From IMG/VR virus record IMGVR_UViG_3300033145_000719, positions 1 to 55,467 of that record: DNA of 55,467 nucleotides; one strand, 5' to 3'. Made by a program: the position numbers and the translations under genes. This DNA is from a virus (taxonomy: Duplodnaviria; Caudoviricetes). Below are positions 7,588 to 9,460 of the stretch, in pieces; position 1 is the first letter of the stretch, and the number at the start of each line of letters is the position of its first letter. Under the pieces are notes generated by a model that did no database searches, was not told where the DNA came from, and saw nothing but the letters and a program-made list of their open reading frames with translations.

Positions 7588-9189
7588 ATGGCTACACTCA
7601 TGTTAAATACTGCCAAAAACGGCAGTGTGAAAGGTTTTATTCTCAAAACAACTTATGAAGAAAGGCATATAGCAAAATCCGCTGGTGGAAGATGGGATGC
7701 TTCATTACAGTGCTGGAAACTTCCGCTTGATGTTGAGATAGATACTCTGGTGCGGAACACATATCTGTACGTGTCAGATGACGCTAGGGAATTTTTGGCT
7801 AAACAGCAGAAAACTACAGAGCACCTGGTAAAACTGCACTCAGCTAAGGACGCTATCGTCAAGTACCCACAAAGGCTAGACCCCTATCAGCGAGTTGGTG
7901 TGCGCTTCTTGGCAGATGCCGGAAGCGCTATTTTAGCCGATGAAATGGGTCTGGGCAAAACACCACAGGCTATAAGGGCTTGCAAGGAACTTGGAGCTGA
8001 GAAGGTTCTGGTTGTAACCAAAAAGAGTCTTATACACAACTGGGTTGCTGAAATACAGCGGTGGGCACGCAAGAGCAGGACTGCGGTGCTAACTACCGCA
8101 GATTCCAAGATACCGAATACGAGGTTCATAGTAACTAACTATGAGGTTGCGGTTAAACACAAAGATAAACTGCTAAAGTGTAAGTTTGACGCTCTTGTTG
8201 TTGACGAGGCTACAGCTATAAAAAACCGTAAAGCCAAGCGTACCAAAGCCTTACACAAACTTGCCAAGAACATTCCACACAAATTTCTGCTTACTGGCAC
8301 GCCTGTTCACAACCGTCCAGATGAACTGTGGTCACTGTTGCACTGTGTAAACCCTGCTAAATACACCAGCTACTGGCGCTTTGTTGGCAGGTACTGTCTT
8401 ACGGTTGAGAACTACTGGGGCGGTTTGGACATCTTGGGAGTTAAGGATCAAGGTGCTCTTGCTGCAGAATTAGCTCCGGTTATGCTCCGACGTACTAAAG
8501 AGCTCCTAAGACTACCACCTAAGAGTTTTGAGACTATCTATGTTGGTCTGACTGATACTCAGCGGCAGATATACAATGATTTGCGCACGCGTTTGTTCGT
8601 AGAACTTGAAGGAAAAACCGTAACAGCACCGTCCGTTTTGGTACAGCTTACAAGACTGCGACAGGTAGTATGCTCTCCAGCACTTATAGGCGGTCCTGAC
8701 GAAAGTGCAAAAACGGATGCACTTTTAGACATTTTGGACGACACAGCTGGTGGACATAAAATCATCATATTTACTACCTTCGCAGAATACGTGAAACTGC
8801 TTATGCTCCGCCTGGAGCCGTGGGGCACAGTCCGAATAACCGGAGATATGACTGACAAAGCCAGGTGGAATTCAGTTGAAAAGTTCCAAAACGATCCTTC
8901 TTGTAGAGTGTTGGTCGGTACAATAGGCGCTATGGGTGAAGGACTGAACCTTACTGCCGCAGACGTAGTCATATTCCTCAACCGTGAATGGGTTCCTGCA
9001 CTAAATGCTCAGGCAGAAGACAGAGCCTACCGTCGAGGACAGTCAAAGCCGGTCCACGTTATTAACTTAGTAGCTACCCAAACAGTAGACCAGCACGTAG
9101 AGAAACTCTTATCCAAAAAACGTGACGTCGTATCACAGGTAGAGGCCCTTGAAGCTATTATCACAGGACTGCGTAATGATAGTAAATAA
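7588..9189 (+). CDS. SNF2-family helicase
   Basis: LADEMGLGKT, VVDEA, LTGTP, GEGLNL and QAEDRAYRRGQ motifs. Confidence 0.93.
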   Translation: MATLMLNTAKNGSVKGFILKTTYEERHIAKSAGGRWDASLQCWKLPLDVEIDTLVRNTYLYVSDDAREFLAKQQKTTEHLVKLHSAKDAIVKYPQRLDPYQRVGVRFLADAGSAILADEMGLGKTPQAIRACKELGAEKVLVVTKKSLIHNWVAEIQRWARKSRTAVLTTADSKIPNTRFIVTNYEVAVKHKDKLLKCKFDALVVDEATAIKNRKAKRTKALHKLAKNIPHKFLLTGTPVHNRPDELWSLLHCVNPAKYTSYWRFVGRYCLTVENYWGGLDILGVKDQGALAAELAPVMLRRTKELLRLPPKSFETIYVGLTDTQRQIYNDLRTRLFVELEGKTVTAPSVLVQLTRLRQVVCSPALIGGPDESAKTDALLDILDDTAGGHKIIIFTTFAEYVKLLMLRLEPWGTVRITGDMTDKARWNSVEKFQNDPSCRVLVGTIGAMGEGLNLTAADVVIFLNREWVPALNAQAEDRAYRRGQSKPVHVINLVATQTVDQHVEKLLSKKRDVVSQVEALEAIITGLRNDSK

Positions 9190-9460
9190 GCCTTTGTGCA
9201 TGAGCTACCCGTAGATAATGAGCGAGCCAAAGCATTAGAGACACCTGTGAAGTAAAAGCGAGCCAAGCTGGTCAAGCCACCCATATGGGGAGAGCAAACC
9301 ACAGACCACAAGACACCCAACAACCTGTGAGTGAGCCATGCGGTGCGAGACATCCGGGCGTGGCAAGCGAGCCGTGGCATGTGAGACACCTGTAAGGTGA
9401 AAGCGAGCCATGACTAATAAGACAACCAATATAGAAAAGCGTGCTTCAGTTATAAAAGAC
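9188..9460 (+). repeat. TIGR-like guide array 1 (7 full 36-nt units plus a degenerate 8th)
   Basis: Units start at 9188, 9224, 9260, 9296, 9333, 9369, 9405 and 9441; each is RAGCC-N9-RAGACACCY-N9-RAGC with unique spacers. Confidence 0.88.

Follow-up and report, generated by a model that had tools for sequence, protein, structure and literature searches.

Can a guide array that lies several genes away from a tas gene still be a working part of a TIGR-Tas system? This question is raised by a short repeat region in a phage genome of the class Caudoviricetes (IMG/VR record IMGVR_UViG_3300033145_000719), of which the whole stretch of 55,467 nucleotides (nt) was analyzed and is referred to below as the window. 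TIGR-Tas systems were first described in 2025 (Faure et al., PMC12045711). As described there, a dual-repeat TIGR array consists of alternating repeats of 8-12 nt separated by spacers of ~9 nt and mostly has 5-15 units; its first edge repeat is truncated at the 5' end and its last one at the 3' end, and it lies on the tas strand. Here, we found that the region 9184-9445 (array 1) is a genuine dual-repeat TIGR array and the better preserved of the two arrays of this phage. That it is a guide array, in identity as well as in use, appears probable.

Dual-repeat architecture of array 1

Array 1 and the gene that it abuts are as follows:
9184..9445, + strand: TIGR array 1, with 8 edge repeats, 7 loop repeats and 7 spacer pairs
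7534..9189, + strand: SNF2-family helicase gene, whose TAA stop lies in the first, truncated edge of array 1

Each unit is composed of an edge repeat (9 nt), spacer A (9 nt), a loop repeat (9 nt) and spacer B (9 or 10 nt). Edge repeats (consensus RAGCGAGCC) start at 9184, 9220, 9256, 9292, 9329, 9365, 9401 and 9437, and loop repeats (consensus RAGACACCY) at 9202, 9238, 9274, 9310, 9347, 9383 and 9419, the two alternating every 18 nt. Units measure 36 nt except unit 4, which measures 37 nt and shifts the register downstream by 1 through its 10-nt spacer B. The seven spacer pairs listed in the original prediction, which had been made by reading the letters of the window, were recovered letter for letter: tttgtgcat/gtagataat, aaagcatta/gtgaagtaa, aagctggtc/atatgggga, acagaccac/aacaacctgt, atgcggtgc/gggcgtggc, gtggcatgt/gtaaggtga and atgactaat/aatatagaa. 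The first edge (AAATAAGCC) is 5'-truncated, retains only the 3' part and agrees with the consensus at 5 of 9 positions; the SNF2 stop TAA (9187-9189) lies inside it. The last edge, starting at 9437 (AAGCGTGCT), is degenerate. Exact copies of RAGCGAGCC were found in four of the eight edges, with a single-base difference in one more. All 14 full repeats start with RAG (AG at positions 2-3 throughout) and 11 of them end with CC. It should be noted that an A directly follows the edge repeat in five of the seven units, so that the first base of spacer A may belong to box C, in which case the variable part would be 8 rather than 9 nt long. The boxes of the window have AG where TasR arrays have UG, and the loop ends in CCY-R, not CCA.

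A degenerate unit pattern (AGYRARCC-N9-RAGMYAHCY) was searched for in the whole window, with dinucleotide shuffles as the null. Eight matches were found against 0.01 expected, and none of 100 shuffles reached eight. All eight lay on the + strand, six in array 1 and two in a second array next to the tas gene (array 2), which bears out the earlier claim that the two arrays share the same repeats. A repeat-family search of the window recovered the array repeats as family D1, and array 1 was not among the repeats listed by Tandem Repeats Finder at a minimum score of 30. Array 1 therefore combines what defines a dual-repeat TIGR array: two alternating repeats, ~9-nt spacers, a truncated first edge and a degenerate last one.

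A CRISPR array was also considered. Such arrays typically have a cas gene nearby, and no Cas family was found among the 15 open reading frames (ORFs) of the window that were scanned, all within 4927-16121. The candidate was rejected because the repeats of array 1 are only 9 nt long and of two kinds; CRISPR repeats are described as being of one type and roughly 25-36 nt in length, with spacers similar in size (PMC12045711).

TasA and the tas-linked array

The tas gene and its adjoining array were located as follows:
12198..12896, + strand: tasA, encoding a 232-aa solo Nop/IS110-type RNA-binding protein with no nuclease domain
12891..13043, + strand: TIGR array 2, tas-linked, ~4 units

The TasA product matched the Pfam family PF02371 (IS116/IS110/IS902 transposase domain; E 3.2e-05, 24.7 bits, cut-off 21.3), with no other Pfam domain, and phrog_4285 (E 3.8e-55). 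Among characterized proteins, it aligned with TaTasR (PDB 9mty; E 1.3e-33) over chain residues 110-318, leaving the first 109 residues uncovered, and with SpTasH of Salicola phage CGphi29 (E 6e-24) over residues 71-304. The N-terminal part of Tas chains is a RuvC or HNH nuclease according to Faure et al. (PMC12045711), and the nuclease position in the TaTasR and SpTasH chains was taken from that paper rather than from a structure comparison. On the basis of these alignments, the ORF corresponds to the coiled-coil/Nop part of a Tas protein without the N-terminal nuclease region, that is, a TasA. Two described systems are close to it in different ways. The FpTIGR system of Flavonifractor plautii, as described in PMC12045711, likewise has a solo Nop-domain Tas, alternating repeats, ~9-nt spacers and 36-nt units, and its array, on the tas strand, also shows a truncated first edge and a degenerate last one. 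SpTIGR-TasH (NC_020844; PDB 21kl, 9w03 and others) is phage-borne and dual-repeat, as in the window, and its Nop domain is 32% identical to TasA over 99% of the query, with a nearly identical C-terminal segment (RPLYV.EKLGH); however, SpTasH has an N-terminal HNH nuclease and cuts DNA, whereas TasA begins at the coiled-coil/Nop part.

The residues needed for guide processing could be followed in the same alignment. In SpTasH, Y289 and H296 in the C-terminal loop of the Nop domain carry out a metal-independent cleavage of pre-tigRNA, for which R278, R286, E292 and K293 are likewise required (PMC13421893). The HMMER alignment pairs RPLYVEEKLGH of TasA with RPLYVQEKLGH of SpTasH, such that Y215/H222 of TasA align with the Y289/H296 dyad, and R204, R212, E218 and K219 with the four additional residues. 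In an alignment-based count over 72 distinct relatives, the histidine was present in 68 and the tyrosine in 51; another 15 have W or F in place of the tyrosine. On this residue conservation, there are good grounds to expect that TasA would process pre-tigRNA autonomously.

Array 2 belongs to the same repeat family and is smaller and more degenerate than array 1. Its first edge overlaps the tasA stop, and its first loop repeat and last edge are degenerate. The original prediction had noticed that both arrays open with TAAGCC, in which TAA is the stop codon of the gene before, and that they decay at the 3' end; this is indeed the case, the TAA being 9187-9189 for SNF2 and 12894-12896 for tasA, and the last edges of both arrays being degenerate. 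An edge-motif chain scan of the window found array 1 and array 2 only.

No second tas gene was found by tblastn of TasA against the whole genome (one contig, identical with the window), in which TasA matched only itself. Because there is a single tas gene in 55.5 kb, any use of both arrays has to depend on one and the same TasA, in agreement with the earlier proposal. Array 1 had been described as an orphan lying ~3 kb upstream of the Tas-like gene. Upstream it is, at an exact distance of 2752 nt between the array end (9445) and the tasA start (12198), with four ORFs in between (orf122 and three recombination genes); strictly, it is not an orphan, since tas belongs to the same gene block and is encoded on the same strand.

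Two insertion points in a replication module

The remaining features of this region are as follows:
7257..7285, + strand: promoter-like site, TTGACG-17-TATAAT (11/12), between the CI-like and Cro-like genes
9190..9945, + strand: insertion relative to the nearest SNF2 relatives, containing array 1, a possible 42-codon ORF, a 27-nt hairpin element and orf122
9410..9538, + strand: possible 42-codon ORF, starting in spacer A of the last array 1 unit, with a Shine-Dalgarno (SD)-like AAGGTG 10 nt upstream
9588..9956, + strand: orf122, between array 1 and the exonuclease gene
9946..12122, + strand: three conserved recombination genes, for a PD-(D/E)XK exonuclease, a Sak4-like AAA_24 ATPase and a DUF669 protein resembling single-stranded DNA-binding proteins
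13123..15594, + strand: primase/DUF3631 gene, directly 3' of array 2

The phage is temperate, with an integrase gene (4927-6144), a CI-like S24/HTH repressor gene (6406-7218, - strand) and a Cro-like HTH gene (7277-7498). The order on the + strand is SNF2, array 1, orf122, exonuclease, Sak4-like ATPase, DUF669, tasA, array 2, primase/DUF3631, dUTPase and NrdD. As had been proposed, both arrays thus lie inside a same-strand early/replication gene block, each abutting a stop codon and with no terminator-like site after it. SNF2 is full length, its homologs aligning to within a few residues of the C-terminus.

With SNF2 as a single query, no close relative was found in IMG/VR, and megablast of 7000-15600 against phages gave no match. 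Using an alignment of the closest helicases, 80 IMG/VR loci (1.1 Mb) with SNF2 relatives were collected, in which there was no tas match and no chain of at least four edge repeats. The closest SNF2 relative is 57-58% identical, and the closest tas relative 60%. The nearest relatives with the full module (loci L102, L103 and L105; SNF2 50-54% identical) keep the order SNF2, exonuclease, Sak4, DUF669 and primase without tas or arrays; the tight module of the nearest relatives also includes cro. The gap between SNF2 and exonuclease is 93, 1 and -11 nt in L102, L103 and L105, respectively, versus 756 nt in the window, and that between DUF669 and primase is 140, 78 and 108 nt versus 1000 nt. From these gaps, and from the lack of tas and arrays in the SNF2 relatives, it follows that this otherwise tight, conserved replication module has two separate insertion points, one holding array 1 and orf122, the other tasA and array 2.

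Several other observations were made in and around these insertions. No homolog of orf122 or the 42-codon ORF was found in loci L001-L101, and neither had a protein-family match. The 27-nt element, with the hairpin GCAGGGG-AGAGTGG-CCCCTGC, is identical at 9589-9615 and 19442-19468; both copies are intergenic and shortly 5' of a ribosome-binding site, with no T-run and no tRNA or Rfam match. A 15-nt inverted repeat (9629-9643/9668-9682, 93% complementary) flanks a strong SD sequence, AAGGAGG (9645-9651), and its 3' arm covers an in-frame ATG of orf122 at 9678; it may act as an operator or form a hairpin that affects translation. In the interval between DUF669 and tasA, at the upstream border of the tasA insertion, lies a perfect GC-rich hairpin of 12 bp (12129-12157); its T-run is on the - strand, which carries no genes there, and none is present on the + strand. 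Rfam at gathering thresholds and ARAGORN gave no matches in the window, and the predicted fold of 9437-9660, downstream of array 1, was not unusual (z = -0.14 versus shuffles).

Two further observations concern the host and the helicase family. The window encodes an anaerobic ribonucleotide reductase (NrdD-like, 16249-18381) that is 44-49% identical to those of phages of Oceanotoga and Clostridium and of a human faecal phage, which points to an anaerobic host. The best matches of NrdD and SNF2 are phages of anaerobes, the named SNF2 homologs being from Caldanaerobius and Gelria, and the terminase matches marine phages at no more than 33%. The closest SNF2 relative in IMG/VR (L104, 6576-9236) is an 886-aa ORF, with the helicase match falling into two separate pieces in tblastn. 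For its matching protein (P0008), the precomputed Pfam annotation shows PF13403 and PF14528, the latter of which we take to be a LAGLIDADG-type homing endonuclease family. Taken together, the split match and these families suggest an intein or similar inserted element in the SNF2 of L104.

Array position was then compared across tas relatives. From 96 loci (IMG/VR, metagenomes and one metagenome-assembled genome), 74 non-redundant ones were retained, giving 75 with the window. Arrays were detected as chains of at least four edge repeats with the single motif AGCGAGCC at up to two mismatches, a detector that diverged distal arrays would escape. Such arrays were found in 64 of the 74 related loci, which come from unrelated phages; all of them were on the tas strand and at most 575 nt from the tas match. 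The window was the only one of the 75 loci with an array of this size more than 600 nt from tas, where at least 3 kb of flank was covered upstream in 33 loci and downstream in 30. The detector found no array in the other 10 related loci, many of which are short contigs. Three-member edge chains in L045, L046, L078 and L108 were rejected as chance. In 80 array consensus rows from tas relatives and the window, edge and loop agreed at repeat position 2 in 78, and both ended in CCA in 60. The agreement in 78 of 80 rows is in line with the published observation that the box D and box C motifs can depart from UG and CCA, with edge and loop covarying (PMC12045711). One 74.5-kb contig (L039/L040/L041) carries three identical tas-array copies ~31.5 kb apart; this spacing matches the length of contigs L006 and L007 (31.3-31.6 kb), as if a single small phage genome had been assembled as a concatemer.

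Although its array placement is the extreme case, the window is not the only locus with a gene between arrays. In L013/L094 (Ga0316628_100000033), two genuine arrays on the tas strand are likewise separated by a protein gene: a 4-unit array (8064-8215) is followed by a 298-aa metallophosphoesterase-like ORF, an 11-unit array (9249-9650) and then tas. This locus differs from the window in having only one gene between its arrays, the second of which abuts tas, and in its non-replication context; its Tas is 41% identical. In the L006 group, tas is followed by one array, then by an ORF of 90 aa and by another array. Interruption of arrays by genes is thus recurrent in this Tas clade.

The same comparisons bear on two other explanations of array 1. 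One is that the repeats are iterons of a replication origin, or tandem repeats of a coding sequence, and do not form a guide array. Their place inside a replication module is what such a reading would expect, and a 36-nt periodicity can mislead: in L003 (7528-7850) and L014 (8732-9023), as well as in L140, it was rejected as array evidence because it arises from coding tandem repeats. However, no + strand ORF of at least 40 aa spans 9190-9409, the edge motif flanks tas in unrelated phages as described above, and none of the 80 loci with a homologous replication module carries such repeats. Moreover, the alternation of two repeat types that share their ends is the signature of TIGR rather than the pattern of iterons. 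Thus, we regard this explanation as very improbable.

The other is that array 1 is a relic, stranded by a module rearrangement from an array that was once next to tas, and no longer a source of guides. Its distance of 2752 nt and four ORFs from tasA, when every other array in the census lies within 575 nt of tas, speaks for such an origin, as does the overlap of its last unit with the possible 42-codon ORF and the SD-like sequence of the latter. On the other hand, it is the tas-adjacent array 2 that is less well preserved, with its degenerate first loop and ~4 units; seven differing spacer pairs between conserved repeats are the pattern of a maintained array; and the relatives reveal two clean insertion points, not a scrambled module. 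A stranded relic is, in our view, an unlikely explanation, and array 1 is better read as a maintained guide array.

Targets, possible function and significance

The target of each unit was modeled as spacer A joined to the reverse complement of spacer B, a geometry that we derived from the 8-nt 3' overhang described in PMC12045711. The original prediction had called for searches with such 18-nt composites in both orders; no site was found in the phage genome at up to three mismatches in either order, nor in two control orders, and four-mismatch sites in the window were equally frequent for the control orders. Cores of 8+8 nt with gaps of 0-4 had no site in the window at up to one mismatch. For a test across loci, the 626 different spacer pairs of 84 loci were compared with 1.8 Mb of loci. 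At two mismatches, the real geometries gave 26 and 29 sites versus 40 and 49 for the controls, that is, no excess, and sites at up to one mismatch occurred with a control geometry only. Exact scans of IMG/VR with two of the 11 units yielded three matches for unit 5 and one for unit 3. The matched contigs have 56-66% GC versus 43.9% in the window, and no second spacer matched them at up to three mismatches; these matches are therefore read as chance. It should be noted that natural tigRNA targets are generally not yet determinable, as short spacers give many false positives (Xu et al. preprint).

How could such a system operate? An early rightward transcript running from the Cro-like gene through the primase gene would carry both arrays. 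The site at 7257-7285, the best promoter-like match of the region, is a candidate early rightward promoter for both by its consensus match. By homology, TasA dimers would bind the box D-like RAG and the box C-like CC(A) ends common to edge and loop, and Y215/H222 would cut within full edge repeats to give ~36-nt tigRNAs. Array 1 might be expected to give about five of these, from units 2-6 with their two full edges, and perhaps further ones from units 1 and 7; array 2 would add two to four. Each tigRNA would then guide a TasA dimer to a DNA site of ~18 bp, corresponding to spacer A and the reverse complement of spacer B. Judging from published work on TasA, the nuclease-less ribonucleoprotein would bind DNA and block transcription or another DNA transaction without cutting. 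In this regard, nuclease-less FpTasA binds 36-nt tigRNAs (Faure et al. 2025, PMC12045711), and repression of transcription is described for MbTasA (Xu et al. preprint).

Several points weigh against a working guide array transcribed and processed in this way. Edge 4 (GAGCAAACC) and the terminal edges are off consensus, so that some of the seven units may not mature. Autonomous processing was demonstrated biochemically for SpTasH (PMC13421893), and for TasA we infer it from residue conservation. The repression described in the Xu et al. preprint concerns MbTasA and dead TasR rather than a dual-repeat phage TasA of the window clade. In addition, the promoter and terminator scans look for consensus matches, and these are as many in the region as in shuffled sequence, which makes them weak evidence. 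Weak promoter-like sites are present in the 3' ends of SNF2 (9132-9161) and tasA (12745-12772), so the arrays might be transcribed separately. The + strand intervals 9445-9946 and 13043-13123 contain no terminator-like site except one 5-bp stem in the latter, which overlaps the primase ribosome-binding site; a rho-independent terminator after a TIGR array is described as typical but not obligatory (PMC12045711). Co-transcription of tas and arrays is not decidable from genomic sequence alone, as pointed out in the Discussion of the Xu et al. preprint. Finally, sites in the phage's own genome numbered 0, 8 and 62 at up to 3, 4 and 5 mismatches, close to the means for shuffled spacers (0.57, 6.9 and 58).

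If the arrays are co-transcribed with the genes around them, their processing would, as the original prediction stated, cut the transcript, namely downstream of SNF2 and upstream of the primase gene. The arrays might then double as TasA-operated cut sites: with the build-up of TasA, itself translated from this mRNA, the transcript would be cut at both places, coupling guide production to a feedback on the stoichiometry or timing of the replication and recombination genes. We regard this additional role as rather doubtful. A stronger form of the idea holds that cleavage of the edges by TasA tunes the stability or timing of the early genes in cis and that the spacers matter little as guides. It would account for the placement of both arrays on stop codons, without terminators, at junctions that are tight in relatives, for the retention of the RNA-cutting dyad in TasA and for the empty target searches. 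However, no two spacers are alike and their length is fixed, as would be expected of guides; missing targets are, according to the Xu et al. preprint, the general state of the field; and cis effects and guide function can coexist. A purely cis-acting role seems to us improbable, and a guide function of array 1 remains the preferred reading.

With respect to known systems, the one described here is of the published kind (Faure 2025; Xu 2026 preprint). The placement of its array is unusual, and the gain is incremental. Published TIGR-TasA arrays are described as lying upstream and/or downstream of tas, typically with a terminator, whereas the larger array of the window is 2752 nt upstream and has none. 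In the texts searched, we found no description of a TIGR array several genes away from tas; figures and supplements (Xu Fig. 1d; Faure table S1 and fig. S4) may well show some. A gut contig from Peromyscus leucopus (Faure et al. 2025, PMC12045711) resembles the window in having one TasA and several subarrays, but its units are of the stem-loop type, and what lies between its subarrays is, as described, ~450 nt of intergenic DNA and no genes. The best named-phage match is Microcystis phage Mvi-JY20 (PP438412.1; L101), whose TasA-like protein is 38% identical to TasA. In this phage, an array of ~9 units follows tas at about 4690-5020 (edge ATGCGAGCC, loop ACGAAACCC); it is a single array and ends in a GC hairpin and T-run, in contrast to the arrays of the window, which have no terminator-like site. 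The Mvi-JY20 array is unannotated, the TasA-like protein and an antisense ORF inside the array (4880-5020) being recorded as hypothetical proteins, the latter probably spurious.

For the native biology of TIGR-Tas, including guide targets and array transcription, the window offers a compact natural case: one nuclease-less TasA with two arrays at two separate junctions of a conserved replication operon. No terminator-like site and no intergenic DNA precedes either of them, and in this arrangement co-transcription and the cleavage of neighboring mRNAs by guide maturation become testable. For annotators, the locus is a caution that a search confined to the tas neighborhood can miss the main array. 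Whether tas loci that seem arrayless have another source of guides was left open in the Xu et al. preprint. If array 1 is indeed functional several genes away from tas, such loci may draw their guides from remote arrays.

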